A DNA stretch of 64,000 nt from Spheniscus humboldti (taxonomy: Eukaryota), in assembly GCA_027474245.1 (NCBI GenBank), contig CM049899.1, positions 1,148,536 through 1,212,535 on the forward strand. The letters run 5' to 3'. The notes beneath the pieces are model-generated. The model had not been told where the DNA came from, ran no database searches, and worked only from the letters and a program-made list of their open reading frames with translations. The translations under genes and the position numbers were made by a program. Position 1 is the first letter of the stretch. Every line of letters starts with the position of its first letter. This document shows positions 4,901-64,000 of this stretch, one piece after another.

Positions 4901-7900
4901 ATGCTCCAGATTCCCAGGCTGGGAGTTCGCGGGCTGGCAGACATTTTCCCCATTACAGCCAGGTCACCTTTTGGCTGCTCTGACATATTGCAAGAGGACA
5001 CCCTTCTCCCAGAGCAAAAGGAGCAAGCACAGAGTGCACACTTGGACAGAGTGAGTCCTGAAGCACTCCTGAGCAGAGGAGCGGCCAGCTCAGCTGGCAT
5101 GGGCCCAGAGAAGCAGACGTGCTCATGTTGGAAATGCAACGACATAGTCAGGAGAGGTGTGAGGATCCGCAGTTTCTCTGCTTGGTGTGAGGAATTTCCC
5201 TCATCTCTGGACTCTGCAACAGTGACAAAGAGACAGGAGGTGGTGCCGTCATTGCTCATAACAGCAGCCATCCTCTCCACTGCTCAGAGAAGACGTTGCC
5301 TCTCTCCAACACTGGAACAAAGGTCTCTGATGAGTAGAAGTGGCACAGCAAAGACTACTGAATGAGTTATAGCACTGCCCATCTCGAACAAAGCAGCTGT
5401 GCAGCCCCCAGCCCTGGGGCTGCATTGATTTGAGGCATTGCAGGGCCATTGTCTGGGTTTATTTCATGGCCAAAACCTGATGGTGTTGGTGGTGACAGTA
5501 GCAGAAAAATGAGACTATAGACCTGCAGAGGCAGAACTAAGAGCATTAGGGACAAGGGGACGTGGGTGGGGATCAAAGGGATGGTCCAAATTCCAGGCGG
5601 GAGACACTAACCACACTTGAGCCCTCTGTCTTCAAAAGAGATGCCTGAAGCCAGCACAGAGGTGACGGAAGTGTCTAAAGTGGTGCACAGTGTCTGAAGG
5701 CATGGTGAGCAATCACCAGCTCTTATGCCATCAAGACTCAGAGGCGTCAAAGACATTGCTGAACTCCCTGCCCTAGCATCACAGGCAGGCCCAAGAAGGA
5801 ATGGCTTCAGAGAGCACTGAGATCACCCTGTGCCTTCAACGCAGAAAGACACTAAACCACAGTGATCTGAAAGGCTAGACTGATCCTTGCTGTGACCAAA
5901 GACAGCTCTTCTTCACTTCTCCTGTGTGGCCACAGCTGCTGAAGGTGAGGCAAGGTCTCTAACGACCACGGGCATTGCTGTTGATCGCGTCCAGCCCACA
6001 TAGCTTGCTTGGTCATGGCAGACCAGCAAAAATTAGTTCTATCATCCTTTCATTTTGCATTTGGAACTATGTCCTCTAATAATTGCCTTTGGAAACACAG
6101 ACCCCTGAGGAAAGGAAAAGCTTACCCTCAACAGAGCTTTTCTGAGGTTCCCAGTCCTATCTACAGGTAGGAAAAACCTCTTGCAAAATCTCATCTTCAC
6201 TTCTTTCCTTCATACAGCAAGAATTCCCCAGACTTGAAAACAAAGCCTGCAGCCTTTGCTGTGGCAGGAGTGGGACCTCCTGTTCCTATGGTGGTGGCAG
6301 GAAGAGAAAGAGCCCAGGGTGTCTGGGCAGAACCCTTCAGTAGTCTCCAGTGAATGCAGATGGCCCAGGATGACTGGTTGTAGTTCAGCAGTTCAACTTG
6401 TCTGTTACCTGGAAGAAAGCAAAGGTCCCCAAGCACTCAAACAGTGTAAAAGCAAGTCTTTGCAGCTTTCAGGCCATCAGACAGGACAGTGCTACAGAGC
6501 TGTCTTGCTCACACCCCTGCAGCTCCTCTCAATGCTGACATAGTTCCTCTGTGGAAGATGCTGAGAGCATGCTGCAAAGGGAGAAACCTTCTAGGAGTTT
6601 GGTTACAAATGTATCTTTATGGGCACATTAGCAGGGGATCCGTCCCCCATCATGTAATGATTATATACAAGTAATCAAGTAGTCTCGGGAATGCTCACGG
6701 ATGGGCCAGATCCTGCCAACTATGAAACTGTTAAGGGATGTCAGCAGTGGCTGCCTCCTCCAGCAGCCCCAGGGCAGGACCCTCTTGCCTGTCTACTGTA
6801 GCCCAGCTGGCCCAAGGCCCAGGGACCTGGGGTGTCTGCCTCAGCTGAGGGACAGGGCTGCTGCTTTCCCTTTTGCAGGTGCAACCAGCAGTGAAGCTGC
6901 ACACGTGTCCCAGAGACACACAGACACACAGCCGGTCACACAGTCTGCCACAGCCAAGACACTGCCACCAGCAGCACGTACACAGGGCCTCCATCACACA
7001 CCAGCACCCACAGCCATGTCCCCTCCTCCTCTGGGGCTGGCACAGACAGATGGTCACTCCTGCAGGCACACACACATGCTCATGGGTCCCCTGAGCACCG
7101 GCACGGCCCCTCTGCCACCTGGGACCCCTGCCCGGGCCCCAGCCCTCTGACCCACCCCACAGGTCCCTGACTCTCCATTTGGTCCAACTCAGTGCTCACT
7201 GCAAACACGCAGCACTCACACACCTGTCCCATGGGCACCCCACATTGGCAGGTCCCCCTGAGTGCCTGCACAGACCCCTGCCCACCTGATACCCCAGCCC
7301 AGACCTGAGGGCCCCCTGCTCCCAGCTGGTCCAGCCTGAAATTTGCTGGTGAATACCCCCACACACCCGGTTTGGGGGCGACACAGACCCTCACCCCCCC
7401 CAGCAGCCAGCACCAGGCACATGGGCTGTGACCCACAGTCCCACTCCAGCCACCATGGTGGAGACCCTTACTCACCCTGTGAAGGGGAAACCCAAATGGC
7501 AACTGCCCAGCAATGGCACCTGGTGACCAAGGAGTAATCTGACAGGGAGGGCAGGAAGGGGTTAAGCTGGCAGGGAGTAGGAGCCGACAGAGTGACTCCA
7601 GGCCCCTGAGCTGGCTGGAGCAGTTTCCCTGGCTGGTGAGATGGGACGTGCCGCAGGATGGACTCCTGAGCGTCCTGCAATGGGGTGCACAGGGGCCACC
7701 CTGGCAGCAGAGCTGGGCTGGGGATGGACCCACGGCTGGGCTGAGGTGCCCCAGGCCAGCACTCACAGGACAGGTGCTGGCCCCAGTGTGGGGAAGGGAC
7801 CGGCTCCTGCCCCATCTGTGAGAAGTCGCAGAAGCCCTTGCAGCAGTAGGACTCTGCCCTGCACGTGGCCCATCACATCTCTCTGTTTAAGCACAAACAT

Positions 7901-8689
7901 GTGTTCAATTCACCTCAAGGGGTACAAGAAAAACTCCCCAACACCAGTCCCCTTGGTAGCTGGTTTTGGGGACACACAGTTCCTGCCCCACTGGCTGGAG
8001 GCCCAGACCTCCACTGATCCTGGTCTGACTCCTGTTGCTGGCCCCAAATCCATTCATGCCGCTCTTGGCAACAGCTGGCACTTAATCGTTGCAACACACA
8101 CCTACCCACACTCATGCAGACACACACCCTGAACACCTCCTACATCCCTGACCCTCTGGTTTTGCATCCTTATTGATGGCTGCCAAGTCCAGCTTTGCCT
8201 GCAGTCCCTTGACAGTCCCCTGTCAGTGCCACTGCCGAAGTGTGGTTTCCAAGTGTGGTCTCCTTACTGCCTCCCTTAGCACTTGTTGGTCAGGTCAGTG
8301 TCTCTGCACCTTCTTGTTTATGACTTCCTCCTTTTCTTATTATCTTCTGCATCAAAAAAGGCCCCTGGTCAGACACCCTTAAATGAACAGACAGTCTCTC
8401 CTTCCACGTGCCCCTACACACACACAACCAAGGAGGACAAAGAGGAGAGTGACACGAGGGTCTCTGCAGAGACCCTGAGCAGGGGAGACCCCTACCCCTG
8501 TGGTGCAGGACAGGAGGTACAGCTAGAGGCCACCCCAGAGGAGCACTGGGCCCAAGACAAGCCCTGCTACAGCAGGAGAAGATGGAAATTGGTGGCTTCT
8601 GGCACAGAAGGAAGGCTCCTTCTACTCCTGAAGAGCTGCAGGTACATGGAAAGTGCAGCCTCTGGAGAGAGGTGAGGAGGAGCCAGGCC

Positions 8690-12999: not shown

Positions 13000-15270
13000 A
13001 GCTCAACACCCTCTCTGCCTGGGAGGTCTGAACCAGCTCTTCCCTCCTCCTTCCCTCAATTCTTGGTGAAGTAAGGAGGGGGGCCAGCAAAACTGCAACC
13101 ATGGACTTCCGGAGGGTGGACTTTGGCCTGTTCAGGATGCTGGTTGAGAGAGCCCCTTGGGAGACAGTCCTGAAGAGCAAAGGGGTCCAGGAAGGCTGGA
13201 CGATCTTCAAGAAGGAAGTCTTAAAGGCGCAGGAGCAGGCTCTCCCCATACACCGTAAGAAGAATGGGCGGGGAAGACGACCAGCCTGGCTGAACGGGGA
13301 GCTTTTGCTGGGACTCAGGAAAAAAAGGAGAGTTTACCACTTGTGGAAGAAGGGGCAGGCGACTCAAGAAGAGTACAGGGATCTTGTTAGGTCATGCAGA
13401 GAGGAAATGAGAAAGGCAAAAGCCCAGCTAGAATGCAATCTGGCCGCTGTCATTAAAGACAACAAAAAATGTTTTTACAAATATATTAATGACAAGAAGA
13501 GAGCCAAGGAGAATCTCCATCCTTTATTGGATGCGGGGGGGAACATTGTCACCGAGGATGAGGAAAAGGCTGAGGTACTTAATGCCTTCTTTGCCTCAGT
13601 CTTTAACAGTCAGACCGGTTATCCTCAGGGTACTCGGCCCCCTGAGCTGGAAGACAGGGATGGCGAGCAGGATGAACCCCCCATAATCCAAGAGGAAGCA
13701 GTCAACGACCTGCTACGCCACCTGGATGCTCACAAGTCTATGGGGCCGGATGGGATCCACCTGAGAGTGCTGAGGGAGCTGGTGGAGGAGCTTGCCAAGC
13801 CACTCTCCATCATCTATCAGCAGTCCTGGTTAACAGGGGAGGTCCCAGACAACTGGAGGCTTGCCAATGCGACACCCATCTACAAGAAGGGCCGGAAGGA
13901 GGATCTGGGGAACTACAGGCCTGTCAGCCTGACCTCGGTGCCGGGGAAGATTATGGAGCGGTTCATCTTGAGGGCGCTCACAAGGCATGAGCGGGACAAC
14001 CAGGGGATCAGGCCCAGCCAGCACGGGTTCACGAGAGGCAGGTCCTGCTTGACCAACCTGATCTCCTTCTGTGACCAGGTAACCTGCCTAGTGGATGAGG
14101 GAAAGGCTGTGGATGTGGTCTACCTGGACTTCAGTAAAGCCTTTGACACCGTCTCCCACAGCATTCTCCTAGAGAAGCTGGTGGCTCACGGCTTAGACAG
14201 GTGTACTCTGCGCTGGGTAAAAATCTGGCTGGACGGCTGGGCCCAGAGAGTTGTGATGAATGGAGTTAAATCCAGTTGGCGGCCGGTCACGAGCTGTGTT
14301 CCCCAGGGCTCAGTTTTGGGGCCGGTCTTGTTCAGTATCTTTATCAATGATCTGGATGAGGGGATTGAGTGCACCCTCAGTAAGTTTGCAGACGACACCA
14401 AGTTGGGCGGGAGTGTTGATCTGCTCGAGGGTAGGAAGGCTCTGCAGAAGGACCTGGACAGGCTGGATCAATGGGCCGAGGCCAACTGTATGAGATTCAA
14501 CAAGGCCAAGTGCCGGGCCCTGCACTTTGGCCACAACAACCCCATGCAGTGCTACAGGCTTGGGGAAGAGTGGCTGGAAAGCTGCCTGGCGGAAAAGGAC
14601 CTGGGGGTGTTGCTTGACAGCCGGCTGAACATGAGCCGGCAGTGTGCCCAGGCAGCCAAGAAGGCCAATGGCATCCTGGCCTGTATAAGAAAGTGTGGCC
14701 AGCAGGAGTAGGGAAGTGATCGTGCCCCTGTACTCGGCACTGGTGAGGCCGCACCTCGAATACTGTGTTCAGTTTTGGGCCCCTCACTGCAAGAAGGACG
14801 TTGAGGTGTTAGAGCGTGTCTAGAGAAGAGCAACGAGGCTGGTGAGGGGTCTGGAGAACAAGTCTTATGAGAAGTGGCTGAGGGAACTGGGGTTGTTTAG
14901 CCTGGAGAAAAGGAGGCTCAGGGGAGACCTCATCGCTCTGTACAACTACCCGAAAGGAGGTTGTAGCGAGGTGGGTGTCGGTCTCTTCTCCCAAGTAACT
15001 AGCAATAGGACAAGAGGAAATGGCCTCAAGTTGCACCAGGGGAGGTTTAGATTGGATGTGAGGAAAAATTTCTTTACTGAAAGAGTGGTTAAACATTGGA
15101 ACAGGCTGCCCAGGGAAGTGGTTGAGTCACCATCCCTGGAGGTATTTAAAAGACGTGTAGATGAGGTGCTTAGGGACATGGTTTAGTGGGCATGGTGGTG
15201 TTGTGTTGACAGTTGGACTCGATGATCTTAGAAGTCTCTTCCAACCTTAATGATTCTATGATTCTATGTT
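13000..15270 (+). mobile_element. CR1 LINE, 5'-truncated copy with a near-complete RT domain (536-aa ORF, then frameshifted C-terminus and 3' UTR)
   Basis: ORF 13101..14711 contains the CR1 RT block ([41 protein letters not shown]). ORF 14842..15186 is the CR1 C-terminus ([22 protein letters not shown]). The tail is 'atgattctatgattctatg' at 15249..15267. Confidence 0.92.
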
Positions 15271-18699: not shown

Positions 18700-20330
18700 T
18701 CACCCAGGCTTCACTTTCTGCATGACCCCATCAGTTTCTGAGGGACCCAGGCATCCAGGTGCCCCCTGCCCTCCAAACCCCCTCAGCTTGTGTCTGGGGG
18801 ACCCATTCCCCCAAGCCCCCTCTGCCCATGTCTGGTGGACCCAGGCCTCCAAGGGTCCCAGGCACATGGATGCCCTGGTCCTTGCTGTCCCAAGGACACA
18901 GATGTTCAGGCAGGAACAAGAGAAGGTTGGTGCCACTGGTGACAAGTGGTCTTGGGGTTGGTGGGGGCTGGAGGTGAAAGCAGTGTCCCTAGGGTGCTGG
19001 GCAGGTTGGCCTGCAGAGAGGAGGGTGGTGTGAGGTGGCAGTTGTCACCTGGGAACACCCTGAGCCTGGGGACATCTCCACCTTGGGGGTGGTAGGGTGG
19101 GGATCTGTCACCTGGAGACCCCCACACCGTGAGGACACACCAGGGGCACCATCATGTGTGACCTCAGCCCTAAAGACACAGGGGCACCTGCATCCCCACA
19201 CCCGTTGGACCCTACCCAGGCTCCAGGGTGGCACTGGTGGCAGTGGCACCTGGGGTGTGTGTGGGGTGTGTATGTCAGGGAGGGGCTCTCAAATACCCCC
19301 CATCTCATCCCCCACTGTGTCCCCACATTTTCCCCTGCTCCTGTGTCCCACTGTCCTCATCCTACATCCCCACGTGTCCCCCCCATCCTCCATTGGTTCC
19401 CATGTCCCCCCAGCCAATCTCCATGTCAATTCCCTTGTCCACAGTGCCCCCTACATCCCCTCACCCCTCCCCACTGTCCCCCCCAGTGCCCACCACCAGT
19501 CTTCCCTAAACCCCCCCTGGGTTCCCAGTGCCCTCACATCTCCCCCAGTGCCCACATCATTCCCCTTTCCCACACCACCCCAGTGCCACTCACATCCCCA
19601 TACCCACCTGAACATCACCACTACACCCCTTGTCCCCTGCTGGTCCCCACATCCCTGCTGCTGGTCTCCACGTCCCCTCCCTTGTCCCAAGGGCTCCCCA
19701 CCTCCCCTCACCCATCGCCAAATGTCCCCCACCTGTTCCCCCTGGTCCCCAGTGCCCCCCCCAATCCCCTTAATTGTCCCCACGTGTGTCTCCGCCCTGT
19801 GGCCACCAGGAGAAGTGGCAGCAGGGGCCACACCGACGTCTCTCCTCAGGGTCCTGGCACAACAGACACGTGAAGCTGGGGCGAGGGGTGATGTGGGTGG
19901 CCCCCAGGTGCTGCTGAGGAGCTCCAGGCCGTGCCGTCAAGGGGCTGGGCAGCACCTGCAGGTGAGAGGGGCATAGGGGTTATGGATCACCTGTGGGTGC
20001 TGGGCACACACCCCCTGGCTGTCCTGTACCCCCCACCAGGGCTCATTCACCCCCTTGGATCCATTCCCAGGGGGCTTGTGTCCCCCTTCCCCCAGGGCCT
20101 GTCCCCTCAGAGCTCACTCCAGCTCCTCGTTCTGTCCCCTCAGACCTCACACCCCCTCTCCTGGGCCTGTCCCCCCTGTCCTCTCCCCTGGGCCTGCCCC
20201 CTCAGAACTCACCTCACAGCCTGGCCTTGTCCCCTCAGGCCTCACCCCCCCATCCCGGGGCCTGTCGTCTCCCCCAGGCCTGTCCCCTCAGACACCCCCC
20301 CTTGCCTCCATGTATTGGGTTTGCTTGGCA
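18700..20330. repeat. C-rich (proline-codon-rich) minisatellite arrays, several related ~40-45 bp units
   Basis: There are many 'cccagtgcccacatc...gtcccc' units. Long ORFs are open in multiple overlapping frames (19035..19976, 19154..19873, 19228..19509), which is typical of low-complexity sequence rather than a coding signature. Confidence 0.8.
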
Positions 20331-20380: not shown

Positions 20381-20990
20381 AGAAGCTTCCCCTATGTCTG
20401 ATAGAGCCAATGCCAGCCAGCTCCAAGATGGACCCACTGCTGGCCAAAGCTGAGACAATCAGCAATGGTGGTAGCACCTCTGGGATAACACATTTAAGAA
20501 GGGAAAAATCAACCACTGAGCATTGGCAATTGCAGCCAGAGAGAGGAGTGAGAGTATGTCAGAGAAACAGCCCTGCAGACATCAAGGTCAGTGAAGGAGG
20601 GGGAGGAGGTGCTCCAGGCACCGGAGAAGAGATTCCCCTGCAGCCCATGGTGAAGACCATGGTGAGGCAGGCTGTCCCCCTGCAGCCCATGGAGGTCCAC
20701 GGTGGAGCAGATATCCACCTGCAGCCTGTGGAGGACTCTACGCCGGAGCAGGTGGGTGCCCAAAGGAGGCTGTGACCCCACAGGAAGCCTGTGCTGGAGC
20801 AGGCTCCTGGCAGGACCTGTGGACCCGTGGAGAGAGGAGCCCACGCTGGAGCAGGTTTGCTGGCAGGAGTTGTAACCCCATGGGAGACCCACGCTGGACC
20901 AGTCTGTTCCTGAAGGACTGCACCCCGTGGAAAGAACCCACGCTGAAGCAGTCTGTTTCTGAAGAACTGCAGCCCATGGGAAGGACGCGC
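20381..20990 (+). mobile_element. Avian LTR-like interspersed repeat, 3'-truncated (copy 1)
   Basis: About 600 bp align with 43412..44020 ('agcttcccctatgtc.gatagagcca..gccagctccaagatggac...ctgcagcccatggaggtcca.ggtggagc...cacgctggagcaggtttgctggcag'). Confidence 0.7.
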
Positions 20991-21189
20991 AAACCGTGCC
21001 CTGGGGGGCGGGGGTGTAAATGCAGCCCTGGGAGGGTAAATGCAGCCCTGGGGGGGGGGGGGCAGATTGTGCCCTTGGGGGCTAGATCTTGCCTGGGGGG
21101 GGGCGTAAATCTGAGCCTGTGGGGCGGGCCCCGGTGGGCTGGGCCCTGCCTGCCCGCAGGGCTGGGCCTGGGCAAAGGCTTTTCCGGGC

Positions 21190-21835
21190 TCTCCTGCCCC
21201 ACAGGGAAGCGTTCAACCCCTCAGCGAGGTGTTCTGCCCTGCGGCAAGGTGGTCTCCTGCCCTACGATGAGGTCTCCTTCCCCCCTGCCTCCACCTCCCC
21301 CCGTCCCCCCAGCCCTGTGGCAAGTTCGCCTGCCCCACAGCAAGCTTTTCTACCCCACGGCAGGGTCCCCAGGCATCCCAACCTGTGGTGAGCTCCTCTG
21401 TCCCATGGTGAGGTCTTCTGCCCCTTCCCCAGTGACCCCATCTGCCCAACGGCAAGCTTTTCCTACCCTGTGCCAAGGTCTACCCCACCATGAGCCCTGT
21501 GGTGAGGTCTTCTGCCCCACTCCAGCAAGCTTATCCGCCCCACAGTGACCTCATCTGCAGCTTTTCCACCCTGTGGTGAGGTCTCCCACCCCACCATGAG
21601 CCCCATGGTGAAGTCTGCTGCCTGTCCCCGCCCCCCCCGATGAGCTTATCCCCCCCACAGCAATCTCTTCTGCCCCACAACAACCTCGTCAGCCCCATAG
21701 CTAGCTTTTCCACCATGTGGCAAGGTCTCCCACCCCACAGTGAGCCACAACAAGTTGTTCTGTCCCACAGCAAGCTCATCTACGCTCTGGGAAGGTCTCC
21801 TGCCCCACAGTGAAGTCTCCTGCCCCATGGAAGAC
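21190..21835 (+). repeat. ~20-22 bp minisatellite (unit TGCCCCACAGYRAGGTCTYC), about 30 copies, ending in the MVP start-codon unit
   Basis: The read units are 'tgccccacagcaagcttttc', 'ctgtcccatggtgaggtcttc', 'tgccccacagtgaagtctcc' and 'tgccccATGGaagaccctg'. The final unit carries the MVP initiator ATG at 21827. Confidence 0.85.
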
Positions 21836-21945
21836 CCTGTGATCCGCATACCCCCCTACCACTATGTCCATGTGCTGGACCTCAACAGCAATGTCACTCG
21901 CGTGCAGGTTGGGCCCCACACCTACATCCAGCAGGATCATGAGAG
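21827..21945 (+). CDS. MVP: MVP coding segment 1 ([39 protein letters not shown] + ag)
   Basis: It matches the human MVP N-terminus [42 protein letters not shown]. The ATG is in 'ccccATGG'. The donor is AG|gtgggt at 21945/21946, phase 2. Confidence 0.9.
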
Positions 21946-22139
21946 GTGGGTGCTATGGGACGGGGGGATACCTATGGGTTGAGGGGGTCCATTTCCTACA
22001 TCTGGCAGGACCAAAAAAGGTGGGTGCTGTGGAACAGGAGGGGTTCTATAGGATGATGGGTGCCACCCCTATGTCTGGCAGGACTACAAAATGTGGGTGC
22101 TACAGGGCAGGGGGTGGATTTATATGGCTATAGGGCGAT

Positions 22140-22545
22140 CTAGATTTATAAGTGTGGGGTCTCTGTAGGGCTGTGGGGGGTGTTTGGGGGGGCTCTGTAG
22201 GGCCATGAAGGGCTTGAGAGGATCTGTGGGACCGTTGGCACTCTTTAGGGCTGGGGGGATGCTGGGGGGCTCTTTAGGACTATGGGGACTCTACGGACCC
22301 TGGGGGACATTGGGGTTGTATAGGGCCATGGGGGTGTTTGGGGGCTCTGTAGGGCCATAGGGTCTCTATAGGGTCACAGGGATTCCATAAGGCTGCAGAG
22401 GGTCATAGGAGAACTGGGGGACTTGATGGGCTTTATAGGGCCCTTGGGGGTTCTACAGGGCTTTATAGGGCTTTGGGGGTTGGGGAGGGTGGTGAGCTTT
22501 GTAGGGCCCTGGGGGCTCTATAGGTCCGAAGGGAGCAACGCGGGC
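22140..22545. repeat. MVP intron minisatellite, GGGCTCTRTAGGGCC family (reverse complement of the CTATAGCTCC family)
   Basis: Repeated 'ggctctgtagggccat', 'ctctatagggtcac' and 'ggctttatagggc' units are read directly. Confidence 0.8.
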
Positions 22546-22555
22546 CCGCCCGCAG

Positions 22556-22751
22556 GGTGATGTTCGCCCCCAGGTGCATGGTGATGGTGCCCCCACGGCA
22601 CTACTGCGTGGTGCTCAACCCTGTGGCCCGGGGCCCTACGGGGGCCGTGCTGGTCGATGGAGCAGGGCAGGCCCGTCTGCGGCACGCCGACCTTGATATC
22701 TGCCTGGCCCAGGAGCCCTTCCCCCTATACCCCGGGGAGGAGATCCAGCAG
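22556..22751 (+). CDS. MVP: MVP coding segment 2 ([65 protein letters not shown])
   Basis: The acceptor is cccgcag|G and the donor cag|gtacct. It matches human [23 protein letters not shown]...[22 protein letters not shown]. Confidence 0.9.
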
Positions 22752-22769
22752 GTACCTGTAGCCCCCTAT

Positions 22770-23460
22770 AGCAGCCCCAGGGCTCCCTATAGCTCCTCTA
22801 ACCCCACCATGGTCCCCTATAGGCTCCATAACCCCTCTCTGTAACCCACCACTGTAGTGTTCCATGGCCACTTATAGCTCCTCTAATCCCTGTCATCTCT
22901 CACAGATCCTATAGCCCATATAGCTCCCTGTGCCCCCTCCCAGCTCCTATAGCTGCCTCATCCTCCCCCCATTGCTCCTATAGCCCCCCCCCCCCCCAGC
23001 CTCCTATAGTCCCCAGCATGTTAACTCTGTCCCTTCTCCGAACCTGTGTACCTGTCCCCAGGGTGTCCCTGCAGTGTCCTCTGTTCCCAGGGTATCACCC
23101 GTGTCCCCCATAGTGTCCCCCCATCCCCAGGCTGTCCCTGACATCCCTTGTAGTGAAAACCTGTGTCCCAGTCCCCAGGGTTTCACCCCCCATGTCCCAT
23201 GCCATCACCCCTGTGTCCCCCTTGCCTCCGCAACCCTGTCATGACTCCCATGTCCCCACATCCCCCATTGTGACACCCCCAGATGCTTCCCCACATCCCC
23301 TGCAGTCACCCCCCCCATGGCACCCATGTCTTCGGCCATGCTGCCTGTGTCCCCAGGGCATCTCCCAAAGTGCCCCCCGCACCCCTTGTCCCCACGTCCT
23401 CCATACCTCTGCTGTGACACCCATGTCCCCAGCGGATTCTCCCTCAACCTCGCGTCCGTG
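22770..23460. repeat. MVP intron 2 minisatellites: a CTATAGCTCC family (22770..23005), then a poly-C tract and GTCCCC/ATCCCC-rich repeats
   Basis: 'ccctatagcagcccc', 'ctcctatagctgcc' and 'cctcctatagtcccc' are followed by ccccccccccccc (22987..23001) and 'tgtccccagggtgtccctg...' units. Confidence 0.8.
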
Positions 23461-23469
23461 TGTCCCCAG

Positions 23470-23593
23470 GGCGTCACCCCACTGCAGGTGGTGCTGGCCG
23501 ACACTGCTCTGCGCCTGTGGGCCCTGCTTGACTTCAAGGACGAGGATGGGAACAAGTTTGTGGCAGGAGACGAGTGGCTCTTCGAGGGTCCTG
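23470..23593 (+). CDS. MVP: MVP coding segment 3 ([41 protein letters not shown] + g)
   Basis: The acceptor is tccccag| and the donor cctg|gtgagc. It matches human [41 protein letters not shown]. Confidence 0.88.
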
Positions 23594-23666
23594 GTGAGCA
23601 TGGGGGTCACCCCCTTTTGGGGACACCCTGGGGGACCCATGGGCTGACGGTGCCACCTGCCTGCAG

Positions 23667-23798
23667 GTACCTACATCCCCCGCAAGGAGGTGGAGGTGGC
23701 TGAGATGCTGCAGGCCACTGTCATTGGGCACAACCAGGCCATCCGCCTGCGAGCACGCAAGGAATGTCTCGACCGCTATGGCACCCGCCGCGTCACAG
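23667..23798 (+). CDS. MVP: MVP coding segment 4 ([44 protein letters not shown] + g)
   Basis: The acceptor is cctgcag|gt and the donor acag|gtagca. It matches human [44 protein letters not shown]. Confidence 0.9.
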
Positions 23799-23799
23799 G

Positions 23800-24905
23800 T
23801 AGCACCCGGTGGCACCTTGGGCGCCTCCTGGGTTCAGCCCTCGCTCAGTGGCCTTGGTGTCAGCTGGCACGATACCACCCTGTACCATTGGTGCTACCCC
23901 TCGGCACACATGGGAACCCTCTGTTGCTTGAAGGCTCCCCTGGGACACCCTGTGCCACCCCACCCCGTACCCTGGGACCCTTTTCTCACTCTCCAGCACC
24001 TCTGAGACCCCTGTGTCACCCTCCAGCACCCATGGGAGCTCCATGTCATCTGACAGCACCCCTGGGGCCTCCAGCACCCCTATCCCATCCCTTGGGAGTC
24101 CTAGGACCCCCAGCACCCCCTTCCTACCCCACAGCATTCTCAGGACCCCTATCCTATACCTCAGTGCCCCGGGATCCCCAACACGCCCATCTCACCCCCA
24201 TAACCCCCCTCCACCCCACAGCACCCCTGGGATCCCCAACACTCACAATCCCAGCCCCCATAAAGCCCCTTCCACCCCACAGCATCCCTGGGATACCCAA
24301 TGCTCCCATCCCACCCACCCATATCCTCCCTCCCACCTCCCAGGATCCCTGTCTGATCCCCCTCCCTGCTCCCCTGGGATCCCCAGCTCTCCCATCCCAC
24401 CCTCCAAAAACTCCCTCCTACTCCCTAGCACCCCTGGGATCCCCAACATTCCCATCCCACCCCCATAACCACCCTCCCACTCTGCAGCACCCCCAGGATC
24501 CTTGTCTGATCCCCCCAGCACCCCTGGGATCCCCAACTCGCCCATCCCACCCCCCATAAGCCCTGTCCCACCCCGCAGCACCCCTGGGACCCCATCTTAT
24601 CCCCCAGCACCCATAGTACTCTCAGAACCATCAGTACCTCCAGGACCCCATCCCAGCACCCTTAGGATCCTCCCATTCCACCCTTAGGACCTCCCAACAC
24701 CCTCAGGGCTGCCATCCCACCTGTAGGACCCCTTGTCCTCAGTACCCCTAGGATGCTTGAGATCCATAGGACCCACAGTACCCCTAGGACCTCCGTGGCA
24801 CCCCATGCTGCATATTCCCCAGCACCCTCACGACCCATGTCCCACCCCAGCACCCCTGGGACTCCCAGTCCCCTCCCCCCCCAAGCATCCCAGTATCCTC
24901 AGCTC
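23800..24905. repeat. MVP intron 4 tandem array, ~60-bp unit (cagcacccctgggatccccaacaytcccatcccacccccataa.c...cag)
   Basis: More than 12 tandem units are visible. They generate the spurious proline-rich ORFs 23690..24559 and 24013..24468. Confidence 0.85.
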
Positions 24906-24932
24906 CCCCAGCACCCGTCACCCTGCTCCCAG

Positions 24933-25027
24933 GTGAGGAGTGGCTGGTGAAACAGGTGGGAGCCTACCTGCCCGGTGTCTATGAGGAGGTGGTTGACGTT
25001 GTGGACGCCTACATCCTCACTGACAAG
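24933..25027 (+). CDS. MVP: MVP coding segment 5 ([32 protein letters not shown])
   Basis: The acceptor is ctcccag|gt and the donor gacaag|gtactg. It matches human [31 protein letters not shown]. Confidence 0.9.
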
Positions 25028-25034
25028 GTACTGG

Positions 25035-51700: not shown

Positions 51701-52697
51701 CAACCCCAACAGAAAATATCTCATCATTGCTTTTTCTCCTTAAAAAGCAACTCTGACCACCTGACTGCTCATTGCAATCAAAGGAAGATGTGACCTGACC
51801 CTTCAAGCATTCTGGATGCGTAGGTGGGACTAAACAGTGTTTGTGAATCAAGAACATGCATGCTCCTTGAGACAGGCAGGTCAAGTTTGCCACCAGGTCC
51901 CCACATCGGCATTTGCTAACACTGTTCAGCTTCGGGTACAACTGAGCTGCGTTCAGTTAACGTGAAAGCATCTCCTAGTAACAGCCAGTATCAACCCAAG
52001 AACTATAACGTAAATGGAAGAAAACTCAAACTGTGCCCCCTTCTCCTTACGCTGGGTTAGGATTTGTGACAGGAATTTGATTCCACAGTTTGGAAAAGCT
52101 CCACGGTTGCAGCCAAAAGGATCTGGAGCTTCCTGGGTCTCAGAGTAATTCTAGAGCTAAAGTAGTGATAGGCATCAACTTTAGATCAGATAATACATGC
52201 CAACACTCATCACTGACCCAAGGCGGCAACCTCCTCCTGTCCTACCCAAGGGTTTAAAATGCAACACACTTTCTTCCTAAAACAGGACACTACCTTATTT
52301 ATTTGTAACACCATTGACAAATTTCTTCCTTGAGATGGGACTAGGGATACATTACACAAGCAGTCAAGCCACTGGTTGGAAGCATTGGAGCCTTTTCGGT
52401 ACTGTTTTATCACCACGGTTGGCATGAGAAGGAAAATGAAGGACACGAGAGATGGTGAGACATTTAATCTACAATGGAGATAGCTATGGTGAACAAGTAA
52501 GGCTGAGACCAAGTCCTTTTTCTCAGGGGAAAAGTACACACCAACTAAATAACTGCTGAACAGACCAGTATAATTTAAAGTTATACAGGAAAAAAGATTT
52601 GAGGAACACAACATAAGAACTGACTACCGCAACACTTCTTTTGTATAGTACTAAAGTGGAAACACACTACACAAGTGTATGTACTGCATATATATTT

Positions 52698-52721: not shown

Positions 52722-54537
52722 TATTTATATAGACATTATGTATTATAATAGTCATATATTTCTGTGCATATAAACACCTATAAAATCCAAACCTTTACTC
52801 TTCCTCTGGCCATACACATCTTTCACGTCAATGTACACCAAGAAGAATTCATAAAATCCAAAAGTAATTATCTACAAGATTCCACTAAAACCTGTAGCTA
52901 AGAAATATTTCGGAGAGACCGCCACAAAATTCATGAAGAATGCAGACAAAAATCACCAGCAAAGGAACATTAAAAGCACAATGTTCCCAAATCTGAATAT
53001 ATATACACACATTTTTTTGGAGATGAATCCTTAAGTTTTGCCCGTTAGATTATTTTTTAATAATCTACTGAAATAGTTTTTGCCACTGGTATCAAACAGC
53101 ACCTGGTTCCCAAGTCTCCAATCATCAAGATCATTAATTGCAAGTAGTTGTTTCTACAATTACCCTGTTACATTTACCTGGACATGCTGAGGGTTGACAG
53201 CAGACAAGAATTGTGACCTGTGCTGGCACTTACTGCACCACTTCTGTACCGACATGATCAGATGAATGCCAGAATTTCATCCGTCTTCATTCGGTGCAGC
53301 CATCCCATGAGATCCATCGCTGTCCGCCCCCAGGAAACACTGCTCATCCTCAAATACTCCGACAGACTGCACCCCTAAGCAGGGCATTATTTTAGTTCTG
53401 AATCAGGTAAGCACAGCATCGAAGCAGAGCAATGAAAATGCCTTAGTTAACATTTACAAAGTTTGCAGCACACCAGGTGTTTTCCATCCCATTAACAACT
53501 TAGGACATACTCACCACTCTTGCATATTACGTGCTTTACGCGTGTCTGTGCATACGTACTGGCACATGTGCATGCATACCCCTACACTACTACATTTCTT
53601 TCCTCCCCTCTACTTTCTAGCACAGAGGTATCAAGCTCAATGTCAAGTTAAACACATGCAAGCAGTAAGGCACCAATTCACGTCAGACCATCAGATATTA
53701 TCTTGGCATCCAAGCTAACACGCACATCACCACCCCGAGTCTCAAAAATAACAAGACTAACGTTTCATGAAACTTACTGTCAAGTGCCAGAGCTGCCACA
53801 ATCTGAAGCGGCACTACGAAGGGAATTCTCATGTGCATCTCTCTCTCTCTTCCCCCCGCCCCCCACTACTGTTTACCTACACTACCCGTAAACATCATTT
53901 TCCTGATGCAGTACTTTAACCCACATGTTTTCAGCACAGCAACAACAATCATAAGCAATAGTGCCTCCAGTTCTTTTGGGGACACTAAAAATAATGCAAC
54001 TTTTTTTTCCCCCTCCAGACACCAGCGGTTATTGACGTTTCCCACCTCCTGGAACCAGAATCCAGTTGTTGTGGGCTACCTCTGGTAACCCACACCTATA
54101 AAACCAATGCTAGCTGCACCATTTATCAAGGCGAGCAAGCAAGAAGCAGTGCTGTGGCCAGATTCAGTACAGTGTCCTATCAAGGGAGCCATGTGGAAGT
54201 ACAGCTACAATCTCCCTGTAGATAAAGGAGCAGCAAGAAGGTCGCTTCCCAGGTCTCAGAGTAATTCTAGAGCAAAACCAAATCATCTTCAGATTTATGC
54301 TCAGATAATACATGCCAACACCCATCACAGACCCAGGGGAACTAACAAAGCAGCCCCCTTTGTACCTCACAGGGGACAGCAGGGCAGGAGAGGAGCAGCT
54401 GGGGAGCACACACCCAACCTCTAACTCTCAACAAGGGAGTGAGGGTTGTTACTCTTAATAAAAGCACAGCTGCGCTGAAATAAGCCCATACTTACACAGT
54501 CGCCTTTCCTTGTCCCATACAAAGCTATATGGGCCAC

Positions 54538-58197: not shown

Positions 58198-61100
58198 CAG
58201 GCTTATTTACAATGTGTCAGGGGCATTGACAAATCCCTCTATTTTCCCTGGGAAATAATGTTTGCAGTGTTTCAGGCCACATTTCAAGGCAGTCACTTGG
58301 AAACTACAAACTGCAGGAAACCACAGTATCAACTGAAGCCTACTCATAATCATCTTCCCCTGATAAGACACCCCCCCCACACACCTCCCCCCAAAAAAAC
58401 CCCAAACAACCAACAGAAACAAAATGAAACACACCAACAGGGATATGCTTATCCAAGAACACGGCAAGGTACATGTAATATTCCCACAAGATTTTAACTG
58501 CTATGCAAAGTAGCTGCCATTTACAGCATTTTAAAGAGTATGTGAATATGCGTAACAAATCTAACCCTTCCAGGAAATACCAACTGCAAACACAAAGAAG
58601 AATGTACAACCCCAACAGAAAATATCTCATCATTGCTTTTTCTCCTTAAAAAGCAACTCTGACCACCTGACTGCTCATTGCAATCAAAGGAAGATGTGAC
58701 CTGACCCTTCAAGCATTCTGGATGCGTAGGTGGGACTAAACAGTGTTTGTGAATCAAGAACATGCATGCTCCTTGAGACAGGCAGGTCAAGTTTGCCACC
58801 AGGTCCCCACATCGGCATTTGCTAACACTGTTCAGCTTCGGGTACAACTGAGCTGCGTTCAGTTAACGTGAAAGCATCTCCTAGTAACAGCCAGTATCAA
58901 CCCAAGAACTATAACGTAAATGGAAGAAAACTCAAACTGTGCCCCCTTCTCCTTACGCTGGGTTAGGATTTGTGACAGGAATTTGATTCCACAGTTTGGA
59001 AAAGCTCCACGGTTGCAGCCAAAAGGATCTGGAGCTTCCTGGGTCTCAGAGTAATTCTAGAGCTAAAGTAGTGATAGGCATCAACTTTAGATCAGATAAT
59101 ACATGCCAACACTCATCACTGACCCAAGGCGGCAACCTCCTCCTGTCCTACCCAAGGGTTTAAAATGCAACACACTTTCTTCCTAAAACAGGACACTACC
59201 TTATTTATTTGTAACACCATTGACAAATTTCTTCCTTGAGATGGGACTAGGGATACATTACACAAGCAGTCAAGCCACTGGTTGGAAGCATTGGAGCCTT
59301 TTCGGTACTGTTTTATCACCACGGTTGGCATGAGAAGGAAAATGAAGGACACGAGAGATGGTGAGACATTTAATCTACAATGGAGATAGCTATGGTGAAC
59401 AAGTAAGGCTGAGACCAAGTCCTTTTTCTCAGGGGAAAAGTACACACCAACTAAATAACTGCTGAACAGACCAGTATAATTTAAAGTTATACAGGAAAAA
59501 AGATTTGAGGAACACAACATAAGAACTGACTACCGCAACACTTCTTTTGTATAGTACTAAAGTGGAAACACACTACACAAGTGTATGTACTGCATATATA
59601 TTTTATATAGACATTAATGTCTATATATATTTATATAGACATTATGTATTATAATAGTCATATATTTCTGTGCATATAAACACCTATAAAATCCAAACCT
59701 TTACTCTTCCTCTGGCCATACACATCTTTCACGTCAATGTACACCAAGAAGAATTCATAAAATCCAAAAGTAATTATCTACAAGATTCCACTAAAACCTG
59801 TAGCTAAGAAATATTTCGGAGAGACCGCCACAAAATTCATGAAGAATGCAGACAAAAATCACCAGCAAAGGAACATTAAAAGCACAATGTTCCCAAATCT
59901 GAATATATATACACACATTTTTTTGGAGATGAATCCTTAAGTTTTGCCCGTTAGATTATTTTTTAATAATCTACTGAAATAGTTTTTGCCACTGGTATCA
60001 AACAGCACCTGGTTCCCAAGTCTCCAATCATCAAGATCATTAATTGCAAGTAGTTGTTTCTACAATTACCCTGTTACATTTACCTGGACATGCTGAGGGT
60101 TGACAGCAGACAAGAATTGTGACCTGTGCTGGCACTTACTGCACCACTTCTGTACCGACATGATCAGATGAATGCCAGAATTTCATCCGTCTTCATTCGG
60201 TGCAGCCATCCCATGAGATCCATCGCTGTCCGCCCCCAGGAAACACTGCTCATCCTCAAATACTCCGACAGACTGCACCCCTAAGCAGGGCATTATTTTA
60301 GTTCTGAATCAGGTAAGCACAGCATTGAAGCAGAGCAATGAAAATGCCTTAGTTAACATTTACAAAGTTTGCAGCACACCAGGTGTTTTCCATCCCATTA
60401 ACAACTTAGGACATACTCACCACTCTTGCATATTACGTGCTTTACGCGTGTCTGTGCATACGTACTGGCACATGTGCATGCATACCCCTACACTACTACA
60501 TTTCTTTCCTCCCCTCTACTTTCTAGCACAGAGGTATCAAGCTCAATGTCAAGTTAAACACATGCAAGCAGTAAGGCACCAATTCACGTCAGACCATCAG
60601 ATATTATCTTGGCATCCAAGCTAACACGCACATCACCACCCCGAGTCTCAAAAATAACAAGACTAACGTTTCATGAAACTTACTGTCAAGTGCCAGAGCT
60701 GCCACAATCTGAAGCGGCACTACGAAGGGAATTCTCATGTGCATCTCTCTCTCTCTTCCCCCCGCCCCCCACTACTGTTTACCTACACTACCCGTAAACA
60801 TCATTTTCCTGATGCAGTACTTTAACCCACATGTTTTCAGCACAGCAACAACAATCATAAGCAATAGTGCCTCCAGTTCTTTTGGGGACACTAAAAATAA
60901 TGCAACTTTTTTTTCCCCCTCCAGACACCAGCGGTTATTGACGTTTCCCACCTCCTGGAACCAGAATCCAGTTGTTGTGGGCTACCTCTGGTAACCCACA
61001 CCTATAAAACCAATGCTAGCTGCACCATTTATCAAGGCGAGCAAGCAAGAAGCAGTGCTGTGGCCAGATTCAGTACAGTGTCCTATCAAGGGAGCCATGT

Positions 61101-64000
61101 GGAAGTACAGCTACAATCTCCCTGTAGATAAAGGAGCAGCAAGAAGGTCGCTTCCCAGGTCTCAGAGTAATTCTAGAGCAAAACCAAATCATCTTCAGAT
61201 TTATGCTCAGATAATACATGCCAACACCCATCACAGACCCAGGGGAACTAACAAAGCAGCCCCCTTTGTACCTCACAGGGGACAGCAGGGCAGGAGAGGA
61301 GCAGCTGGGGAGCACACACCCAACCTCTAACTCTCAACAAGGGAGTGAGGGTTGTTACTCTTAATAAAAGCACAGCTGCGCTGAAATAAGCCCATACTTA
61401 CACAGTCGCCTTTCCTTGTCCCATACAAAGCTATATGGGCCACTGTCCTGGTTTCGGCAGGGATAGAGTTAATTCCCTTCCTAGTAGCTGGTACAGTGCT
61501 GTGTTTTGGATTTAGGATGAGAACAAAGTTGATAACGCACCCATGTTTTAGTTGCTGCTAGGTAGTGCTTACGCTAGTCAAGGACTTTTCAGCTTCCCAT
61601 GCTCTCCCAACTGAGAAAGCTGCAGGTGCCCAAGAAGCTGGGAGGGGGCACAGCCAAATTGGCCAAAGAAACATTCCATACCATGTGACGTCATGCTCAG
61701 TACATAAACTGGGGAAAGCTGGCCAGGGGGGGCCGCTGCTCAGGGACTGGCTGGGCATCGGTCAGTGGGTGGTGAGCAATTGCACTGTGCATCACTTGCT
61801 TTGTGTATTATTATCATATTATCATCATTTTATTTCAATTATTAAACTGTTTTTATCTCAACCCACGAGTTTTTCTCACTTGTGCTCTTTCCCAATTCTC
61901 TCCCCCATCCCACCGGGTGGGGGGGAGTGAGCGAGCGGCTGCGTGGTGCTTAGTTGCCGACTAAGGTTAAACCACAAGAGCCACGTGTTTCTCCAAAAGT
62001 AACATGCTTGGCCATCAGGTTTTCTCACCGCGTCCTGTCACGGTGTCACCTTCAAAAAGCACCAACAAAGTGTCAGTTGTGGTGTCAGCTCAGGCGCTTT
62101 CCGTGCCCGAGGGTAATTTGGGCAACTCACCAGCAGTAAGTGCCCGTCTGGACACAGACCTTTCTCCATCGACCCCGACTTGCTTCCTGGCCTGACAAAA
62201 CCTCCCGACAAGGCTGAGGTGAACCACCACTGGCCCCTCCGACCAGCAGAAGACCCAGACCCCGCTGAGGGGGCCCGACGCAGACCCCGAGGCCTCCCCG
62301 GGGGCAGGCAGCCACCCAGGGCCACTAAAGCAGGGTCCTGCCAGGCACTGCCTGCTACCCTGCCCCGCGGCATGACGCTCCAATGCCTTCATTAATAACC
62401 ATTTCAAATTCTCTCAAAACCCTTCTGCTACCTATTCTGACACCACTGTCTGAAGAAAGTTCCTACTGTATTTGCAAGCTGAAACACAGTCCTACAAGTT
62501 GTTCCCCGATTTTCATAATTGAACAGACTCACAGAATCATTTAGGTTGGAAGGGACTTCTTGAGATCATCTAGTCCAACCCCACGTATGGAATTCTGCAA
62601 TATTTTTTTTATTTTTATCAACGAGAGGATGTGTAATACATTCAATAATTATTTAATTTTTATTTCATGATCTCAGATCAAATTAATTTTGAAGGATTAC
62701 ATTGCACTACCTACATACAATGACTTGTGATCTACGACTGCTGTGCCTAGGTACCCTTTTCAGCCAAAAGGGTACAAAGGCCACTAAAAAGTAAAGTCTG
62801 TAATTAGACACAAATACTGATTTCACACAACAGAATTCTCGATCATAAGCAGCCAAACGACAGCAGTTTTTTGGCTGTTGTGAGGACAAGTTACAATGAA
62901 ATAATGTAACTCGCTCATTCATCAATCATATGAAGATACAACAGGAGAATTACATCAATACTATTTCCAAAACGGTCATTTTAGTCACATAATAGATTTG
63001 TAATATTCACTTATCTTACTACACTGCTAATCTACTATTTTGTACTTGTGATAACAGAAAAGTCTCATTATATTTTCTCAAATTAATCTCTACATTTCAG
63101 TCTCCTGCTGAACTTCTCAGCTGGTTTTTGTTACCAGACCTCTCCAAAACCCTATTACTGGAGCTAAATAGCAAATGTATCAATGTAACATCAAGTACAA
63201 GCCTGAGCATGCAAGCTGAGCATACACTGCCATGACTCCCCTGCTACTCACCTGTTGTCAATTTAACACAAAGGACTCCACCTACTCTGACCAACTTCTC
63301 ATGAAGTACCAAGATGGATCTGTAGCCAGAGGGATAACCAATTTCACTACTAACCTGTAAGACAGGGACATACAAACTTCAGAAAGGGACACAAGATCAA
63401 GTACGCCTCTAGTAATGAAAATTAGATGGGTAATATAAATAGGCTATGGTAAAATAGGCTATCTGGAAGGAAAACCAAGGTACAGACGTATACTTTTAAA
63501 TTGACTTGCTAAAAAGGGGAAGGCCTTCTTTGGCATGAAAATTGGCCATCTGATTGGCTATGCCATGACTTCTAAAAAGCAAGCAGAAAAATTCTAGAGA
63601 CAGGGAAATGCTTTAAGTCCAGAAGTGCCTCCTCTTTGCCTCGAACAGAGAAGAGGTTTGCCAGCTTCCCAAGTAACAGGGACTTTCCAGACTTCTCTAG
63701 GGTGGGAAGAAGGAAGGCTGCCTAATTTGGATTACTTAATACCTGTTTGGGTTGGGTTTTGTTCCCTGCCCCCCCACCCCCCACCAAATTATAACCTCCC
63801 AAGTCTCTGCCTGGCTTTCAGATCTCTCCACCTATTTGTTTGTTTACTTTAACTAAGGGACAGGCATTTGGCAAACAAGGAAGGTACATCAATGGGCATC
63901 ACCGATGGATTTCTGACCAGTACACCCTGGTGTGATACCGGGAACGCCTGCACCATGACGGAGTGGTAAGGGGGAACACCCTCACCATCAGCTAAAGCAC
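58198..64000 (+). repeat. Tandem segmental duplication, unit copy 2 (runs off the window end)
   Basis: It matches copy 1 through the window end (57002..57094 ≡ 63908..64000). Only ~4 substitutions were seen (53420 c/t, 55066 and 55106 t/c, 56336 c/t). Confidence 0.9.
61444..61979 (+). mobile_element. Solo LTR, duplicate copy inside segmental duplication unit 2
   Basis: It is identical to 54538..55073 at offset 6906. Confidence 0.75.

Follow-up and report, generated by a model that had tools for sequence, protein, structure and literature searches.

Minisatellites that span a splice junction, and reiterate the splice donor, are known from several human genes: F7 (intron 7, 37-bp units), 6-16/IFI6 (intron 2), and CBS (intron 13) (PMC1557585). 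The first monomer of such an array spans the exon-intron boundary; LMNB2 and PDGF have also been described (PMC1557585). Neighbouring pseudo-sites are used in IFI6 (6-16) and CBS (PMC1557585). Among the reiterated donors of F7, the most upstream one wins.

A second precedent comes from MVP itself. A human splice variant of the MVP 5' leader contains an inhibitory small uORF (Holzmann et al. 2001, FEBS Lett 494:99, PMID 11297743, as cited in PMC3875758 and PMC3483550). The parallel with the locus examined here is that, in the same gene, alternative splicing 5' of the coding exon affects upstream open reading frames. Chicken MVP leaders also hold upstream ATGs, and a translational effect in birds is putative. 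The human variant reportedly involves no tandem array; it arises through use of an alternative splice site within intron 1.

The window (the whole 64-kb stretch of DNA analysed here) contains an MVP gene whose start codon ends a long 20-bp minisatellite. The bird MVP array is the same kind of object as the splice-site-spanning minisatellites of the F7/IFI6 type: it lies on a splice junction, and the authentic site is one of many near-identical pseudo-sites. As in IFI6 and CBS, neighbouring pseudo-sites are used, here as chicken MVP acceptors. There are also differences from F7, IFI6, and CBS. Donor and acceptors of a single intron all lie in one MVP array, which terminates at the start codon; it occupies the 5' UTR rather than coding sequence; its units are diverged (~66%) rather than identical; and it is common to living birds, whereas theirs is a polymorphic human locus. 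In the literature searched, no paper linking MVP with a minisatellite was found.

The array could be a natural test bed for spliceosome choice among reiterated 3' and 5' splice sites: it holds both ends of the intron, and birds have settled on different units, whereas F7, IFI6, and CBS cover reiterated donors only. It also explains the inconsistent N-terminal extensions of bird MVP gene models, which is useful for annotation.

A minisatellite in front of the MVP start codon

Searched by tblastn with human MVP and then with potoo MVP, the window shows one MVP gene, on the + strand; the locus is neoavian. The model comprises 16 coding exons from 21827 to 41346 (854 residues), with an intact frame and GT-AG boundaries at 15 of 15 introns. 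Among full-length proteins, neoavian ones come closest (93% for potoo, ~92.5% for gull and hoatzin), and none is identical. The 13-residue N-terminus matches every listed neognath MVP protein with an intact N-terminus; 21827 is the true start. A search with the 105-residue N-terminus returned no spliced bird fragments, only exon-3 reading frames.

Upstream of this start lies a degenerate tandem array (Table 1) with consensus CCCCACAGTGAGGTCTCCTG and ~66% identity to that consensus. Its wraparound alignment score is 120, as against 20.5 +/- 3.4 (maximum 33) in 200 dinucleotide-preserving shuffles. Self-identity at lag 20 is 0.458, the best lag of any shuffle reaching 0.368; the periodicity is echoed at lags 40 and 60 over a background of ~0.27, and weaker self-similarity appears at lags of ~93 and ~112 nt. 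Unit subtypes include ..GTGAGGTCT.., ..GCAAGCTTTTC.., and ..GTGACCTCATC.., and the stretch from 21190 to 21835 is C-rich (41% C). Tandem Repeats Finder recovers two short pieces only (21386-21424 and 21653-21701), because the unit copies are too diverged, and wraparound alignment to the consensus was adopted in its place for calling the array.

With head-to-tail units of 20 bp, inside the ~10-100 bp range of minisatellites, the array agrees with the initial annotation, which had described a ~30-copy minisatellite ending on the MVP ATG: there are 32 units, the coordinates hold, the array runs into the start codon, and every example unit that was quoted is present. The final CCCCA (21823-21827) falls exactly 20 nt past the preceding one (21803) and its A opens the start codon; the MVP ATG is therefore in phase with the array. 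Elsewhere within the 64-kb window there are no further arrays of the CCCCACAGTGAGGTCTCCTG-type unit, and an Rfam search gave no match inside or near the array. A canonical quadruplex built from the C-runs would not agree with their 16-nt spacing.

Table 1. Features of the MVP 5' region (positions are those of the window)
Feature	Position	Strand	Basis or remark
Interspersed LTR-like repeat fragment, 674 nt, in place of the exon-1 segment	20311..20984	+	collinearity break with gulls
GC-rich segment with GTAAATNCAGCCCTGGG repeats	20985..21189	+	homologous to 3' part of chicken leader exon
Degenerate 20-bp minisatellite, 32 units	21190..21827	+	wraparound alignment; lag self-identity; collinear orthologous arrays in gulls and hoatzin
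ATGAGG at the conserved leader-intron donor (GTGAGG) position; donor lost, ATG created	21267..21272	+	alignment; orthologous donor used in chicken contigs and implied by hoatzin X1, gull, Rissa, Larus, and Cuculus models
Hoatzin X1 acceptor orthologue (ccccatAG|ctagc), 126 nt before ATG	21699..21700	+	RefSeq model, alignment
Chicken major acceptor orthologue (ggcaAG|gtctcc), possible alternative, 102 nt before ATG	21723..21724	+	six chicken contigs, alignment
AG of predicted 3' splice site (gttgttctgtcccacAG|caagctc)	21769..21770	+	invariant in 8 species; duck L014, chicken L010, RefSeq N-termini
Predicted 5'-UTR part of first coding exon	21771..21826	+	last 2.8 array units, 56 nt, no ATG
AG of earlier-assumed acceptor (ccccacAG|tgaag)	21809..21810	+	not conserved
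Coding part of first coding exon	21827..21945	+	10-residue start...QDHER, donor GAGAG|gtgggt

Three more minisatellites flank the array, at 20090-20266, 20998-21129, and 22341-22474. The first has 33/95-bp units, and the gull paralog carries an expanded version of it (L001 9500-9920). The second (GTAAATNCAGCCCTGGG), which birds conserve, falls in the stretch that is homologous to the leader exon of chicken.

Nine other bird loci have, directly 5' of the MVP start, an array belonging to the 20-bp unit family of the window: black-headed gull, main copy (L019) and paralog (L001); bustard (L002); chicken (L003); duck (L013); ostrich (L016); hoatzin (L017); emu (L018); and potoo (L020). Against the 32 recognisable units of the window, there are 34-36 in the gulls, 25 in hoatzin, 31 in potoo, 27 in duck, at least 12 in bustard (where the array apparently is cut short by an unrelated, AT-richer insert upstream), ~3 in chicken, 54 in ostrich, and ~193 (3.9 kb) in emu. 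The cross-species comparison proposed in the initial annotation thus reveals large variation in copy number, from ~3 to ~193, and between species the array behaves as a minisatellite of variable copy number. The window and gull sequences are collinear through the array. Near-identical neighbouring units occur in runs in the hoatzin, potoo, and ostrich arrays, which points to continuing local duplication.

The emu array occupies L018 6324-10196. There the canonical MVP start (L018 10197) reads ACG in the assembly, and the RefSeq model starts at an in-array ATG. Black-headed gull carries, besides the main MVP gene, several decayed MVP-like copies on another contig (L001, L019; P0003, P0122-P0125); these show R-to-W/C/H changes and frame-shifted ends, and the array is kept in each copy fetched.

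The turtle MVP locus (L021) has no 20-bp array: the score is at noise level, and a plain acceptor, ccccccccag|ccgacATGG, precedes the start. Unrelated G-rich arrays lie upstream of turtle MVP. Sequence comparison thus indicates an array that is old and bird-specific, present in both palaeognaths and neognaths, with one turtle as the non-avian comparison. Ordinary GC-rich minisatellites in introns of gene-dense avian regions offer a partial parallel, given the other minisatellites that flank the MVP array and the G-rich arrays of turtle. In contrast to these, the MVP array is kept at one position in palaeognaths and neognaths and has real splice sites inside it.

Splice junctions within the array in chicken and duck, and a predicted acceptor in the window

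Transcript evidence comes from chicken and duck contigs that were assembled from public RNA-seq and mapped to the genome; nine are from chicken (L004-L012). The chicken leader exon runs from L003 7301 or 7434 to 7673. Its donor, cccacg|GTGAGGTCC (cccacg|GTGAGGTC), at 7673|7674, lies within the first recognisable array units, and the leader intron is 195 nt long. Six contigs use the major acceptor, 7868|7869, 93 nt 5' of the ATG, and contig L010 uses cttcacag|cacg, at 7912|7913, 49 nt 5' of the ATG. The remaining two (L009 and L012) are unspliced, colinear with the genome from inside the intron into the coding region. At L003 7869 and 7896, all six contigs that use the 93-nt site read G/G, and the two unspliced contigs read the reference A/A. 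Position 7869 is the first exon base after the AG, so chicken splicing may be allele-specific.

Duck contig L014 joins an upstream exon to ctgttctgtcccacag|cgagct, 57 nt 5' of the ATG. A second duck contig (L015), in which 36 unplaced 5' nt are joined at an AG-less site, was treated as an assembly chimera and set aside. The first exon of L014 is an alternative one (L013 8557-8734), ~270 nt upstream of the conserved ATGGCGGCGGCGGTCGCC motif (~9009); the 200 nt on its 3' side resemble an LTR end and include an AATAAA signal.

For other birds, junctions were inferred from the protein N-termini of RefSeq models, which are predictions, and not from exon tables. The N-termini of gull, Rissa, Larus, and Cuculus imply a GTGAGG donor joined to a site 56 nt before the ATG; Lagopus implies the 49-nt site of chicken, and Numida the 93-nt site. 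Hoatzin isoform X1 (the longer isoform, used here) implies the conserved GTGAGG donor and an acceptor 127 nt before the ATG. In the models of hoatzin X2, Podargus, and ostrich, the sequence continues unspliced across at least 150-200 nt of array.

In the birds with transcript data, then, array units serve as donor and acceptors of the leader intron, and the unit that provides the acceptor varies between species and between transcripts. Three properties of the splice-site-spanning minisatellites recur. Comparison of contigs with genome puts the authentic junction inside a repeat unit in chicken and duck. Pseudo-sites are reiterated in the window array (seven CACAG, three GTGAGG), as diverged rather than identical copies. 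Finally, pseudo-sites are used in orthologues: two acceptors in chicken, with other units implied in duck, gull, and hoatzin. Alternative acceptors within the array, raised as a possibility in the initial annotation, are accordingly in use in chicken (93 and 49 nt) and duck (57 nt) contigs.

The array does not fit recursive splicing at zero-length exons, in which a 3' splice site directly adjoins a 5' splice site (YnCAG|GTRAGT). In the consensus unit, AG and GT overlap (cAGTGAGG); the caAG|GTCTCC junctions have a poor donor, and no intermediate occurs among the RNA-seq contigs.

Which unit serves as acceptor in the window? An eight-species alignment of the last 200 nt shows that AG|C at 21769-21771 is invariant, along with several positions of the pyrimidine tract (gttgttctgtcccacag). 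RefSeq N-termini of gull, Rissa, Larus, Cuculus, and Lagopus imply the orthologous site. From the invariance of this AG in 8/8 species and its use in orthologue transcripts, the window acceptor is predicted at 21770|21771, with the first coding exon starting at 21771. The stretch that would precede the ATG contains none in a search for further ATGs. Its 56-nt length is exact in gull main copy, gull paralog, hoatzin, and bustard (57 nt in duck), and it matches the two gull copies, gap-free, at 89-91% identity, as against 83-85% in the next intron. A weight matrix built from the 15 acceptors and 15 donors of the gene itself gave 21770|21771 no high rank; it was overfitted and was discarded as evidence.

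The initial annotation had instead taken 21810|21811 as the acceptor, which would make all but 16 nt of the array intronic and irrelevant to the mRNA. This site looks good in the window (ctcctgccccacAG|t), and its AG is common to gull paralog and hoatzin. However, the AG is missing from four other loci (which read CACTG in chicken and the gull main copy, and CACGG in duck and bustard), the site is used in neither transcripts nor models, and the invariant AG used in transcripts, 40 nt upstream, would be met first. Splicing at 21810|21811 is thus unlikely. The broader idea of an acceptor inside the array fares better: junction mapping with RNA-seq, proposed in the initial annotation and run here on the chicken and duck orthologues, finds acceptors inside the array and not at the 21810|21811 equivalent, and orthology predicts the same for the window.

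Two further units are candidates for alternative use, at 21724|21725 and 21700|21701 (Table 1). Only 21700|21701 would put an array ATG in the leader: that at 21715, which opens a 32-codon uORF ending 14 nt before the MVP start. On the donor side, strong GTGAGG sites remain in the window array at 21408, 21502, and 21576.

Could the array instead encode an N-terminal extension of MVP? The window frame is open for 126 nt upstream of the ATG, and 29-129 additional residues, translated from array or leader, are present in the RefSeq proteins of hoatzin, ostrich, emu, gulls, Cuculus, Numida, and Podargus. However, from one order to another these residues show no sequence relationship; a 20-nt unit does not preserve the triplet frame; and the pre-ATG stretch measures 56, 57, or 49 nt among birds. 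The open stretch has no in-frame ATG, and the in-frame ATGs further upstream (21596 and 21605) reach a stop at 21643. Because the frame is not conserved and there is no usable in-frame ATG, a coded extension is rejected as highly improbable.

The reading that we consider probable, with moderate confidence, is that a bird-specific minisatellite forms the MVP leader intron together with the proximal 5' UTR and supplies the splice sites, the window splicing at 21770|21771. Within its units a run of pyrimidines leads into CA(C/T)(A/G)G, and GGTGAGGT is present in many of them as well, so that look-alikes of 3' and 5' splice sites recur along the array. According to this model, an old, C-rich, 20-bp minisatellite would sit between a non-coding MVP leader exon and the start codon, and acceptor choice would drift among its units. 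Splicing at 21770|21771 would leave ~580 nt of the window array intronic, and the last 56 nt, ATG-free, would form the leader next to the start codon. The eye-catching ATGs of the window array are then probably intronic and spliced out.

Upstream ATGs and acceptor-like motifs

The array contains seven ATGs (21267, 21405, 21490, 21596, 21605, 21640, and 21715), as against 5.3 +/- 1.8 in shuffles (P = 0.26). There is thus no enrichment, and the nearest of the seven is at least 112 nt 5' of the MVP start; to call the array full of upstream ATGs, as the initial annotation did, was an overstatement. The number is not conserved either, ranging in neognath arrays from one (potoo) to nine (gull paralog). 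With an ATG count that is both at chance and not conserved, a many-uORF architecture built from the array, also suggested at the outset, is unlikely.

Splice-like motifs are another matter. Against shuffles, the array has 7 CACAG (1.4 expected), 6 CCCCACAG (0.17), and 3 GTGAGG (0.16). The repeated acceptor-like sites of the initial annotation are therefore truly enriched, but this enrichment arises only from their being parts of the repeat unit.

Both kinds of motif appear to have a common origin. In alignments, CACGG, CACAG, and CATGG alternate at homologous unit positions across species; the window array has one CACGG to seven CACAG, and hoatzin, potoo, duck, and gull main copy have 4-6 CACGG. 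Such patterns identify CACAG and CATGG, on sequence grounds, as the two deamination products of the single CpG in the unit (CACGG). Decay of this CpG would convert CCCCACGG to CCCCATGG on one strand, and to CCCCACAG on the other. The interchange at homologous positions marks the start-like ccATGG and the acceptor-like CACAG motifs of the array as largely a mutational by-product of the one CpG in each unit, and not as a designed set of uORFs. CpG decay within a repeat can thus yield start-like and acceptor-like motifs without any function, and we infer an absence of function for the intronic array ATGs.

Upstream ATGs nevertheless are a feature of the chicken transcripts. All nine chicken leaders contain them, at least one or two each, and 8/9 include a uORF of 52 or 57 codons that extends into sequence derived from the array. 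The canonical chicken leader has its upstream ATGs in exon 1, 5' of the recognisable array units. A regulatory idea is therefore reasonable for the MVP gene, but the array's own ATGs are not its support.

Much of the array could be present in the mature leader of the window gene if transcription started in or just upstream of the array, or if the intron were retained; up to seven ATGs then would repress MVP translation. The ancestral exon 1 and the orthologous donor are gone in the window, chicken contigs L009 and L012 are unspliced, and the hoatzin X2, Podargus, and ostrich models read through the array, showing that array sequence can occur in RNA; the human leader variant with its inhibitory uORF provides a precedent. 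Set against this, several strong GTGAGG donors persist in the window array, as does the invariant acceptor; the number of ATGs is neither above chance nor conserved; and the unspliced contigs may be pre-mRNA. Retention of the array in the leader seems rather unlikely.

A bolder view, which we regard as speculative and improbable, is that the MVP leader intron is a self-renewing array of two-sided splice modules, giving lineage-specific leaders and hence lineage-specific translational settings of vault abundance. If so, unit turnover and CpG decay would keep making and destroying donors, acceptors, and ATGs; the start codon itself could move into the array, with emu as the extreme case; and persistence in palaeognaths and neognaths would reflect selection for an intron made of such modules.

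An abnormal 5' end in the window copy

In other birds, a GC- and CpG-rich exon-1 segment lies ~0.45-1.1 kb upstream of the ATG and carries AAGATGGCGGCGCCGGTTGC, a motif that we take to resemble a YY1 site. Chicken transcripts begin ~25 nt 5' of the equivalent sequence. The motif is present in four other birds, and was not found in the entire 64-kb window even with three mismatches allowed. The window ceases to be collinear with both gull copies at 20301/20311 and is collinear with them again from 20984/20989. The interspersed repeat fragment that occupies the interval (Table 1) has other copies in the window (43401-43949, continuing to ~44300), gull, bustard, and hoatzin; ~300 bp of ancestral sequence, including AAGATGGCGGCGCCGGTTGC, are missing. 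The initial annotation had been unable to locate the non-coding first exon, and this is the reason: the conserved exon-1 segment is absent, with a repeat fragment in its place. What follows the fragment is the homologue of the chicken leader sequence covered by contigs from L003 7301/7434 to 7673.

The window MVP copy thus has an abnormal 5' end. Because the exon-1 segment is missing and the donor reads ATGAGG, the window leader must be made differently from those of other birds, if the gene is transcribed at all.

Other features of this copy are also unusual. CpG observed/expected is 0.24 in the array and 0.29 upstream, as against 0.42-0.65 and 0.45-0.74 in other neognaths, among which only the decayed array of chicken is lower. 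The protein shows 19 private amino-acid changes at sites invariant in 11 other birds (0-8 in other neognaths); eight of the 19 are arginine losses (seven R to C/W/Q, one R to L). Together, the private substitutions and the low CpG at the 5' end suggest relaxed constraint or germline methylation of the window MVP copy. Taken as a whole, the oddities point to relaxed constraint, to a copy that is silenced or duplicated, or partly to a problem of the assembly.

It is conceivable, though we think it less than likely, that the window MVP copy is losing function or is a silenced duplicate, its array decaying and without a current role here. The replaced exon-1 segment, the mutated donor, the low CpG content, and the excess of private changes all fit this possibility, as do the retrovirus in intron 9 (below) and the several decayed MVP-like copies of gull. 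However, the 854-codon frame and its 15 GT-AG introns are intact, the flanks are collinear with the gull locus, and the missing promoter could be an assembly error. A failing copy in the window does not exclude the explanation favoured above for birds in general, an array that forms the leader intron and supplies its splice sites; the two are compatible.

Retroelements are frequent at this locus. A full-length endogenous retrovirus (29272-35959) lies in sense orientation in MVP intron 9. Over the 300 nt compared, the two LTRs (29272-29571 and 35660-35959) show 100% identity. Its open frames span 705 and 1043 codons, the latter being pol, in which reverse transcriptase, RNase H, and integrase domains are present; the insertion looks very recent. 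At 13101-14711 and 1011-1517, open frames that contain reverse-transcriptase domains mark a retroelement-rich region 5' of MVP.

Downstream of MVP, four SNORD45 matches lie on the - strand: 52134-52218, 54250-54333, 59040-59124, and 61156-61239. They form two pairs, with identical scores within each pair and a separation of exactly 6906 nt in both, which suggests that a snoRNA host gene has been duplicated, either as a 6.9-kb tandem repeat in the genome or by the assembly.
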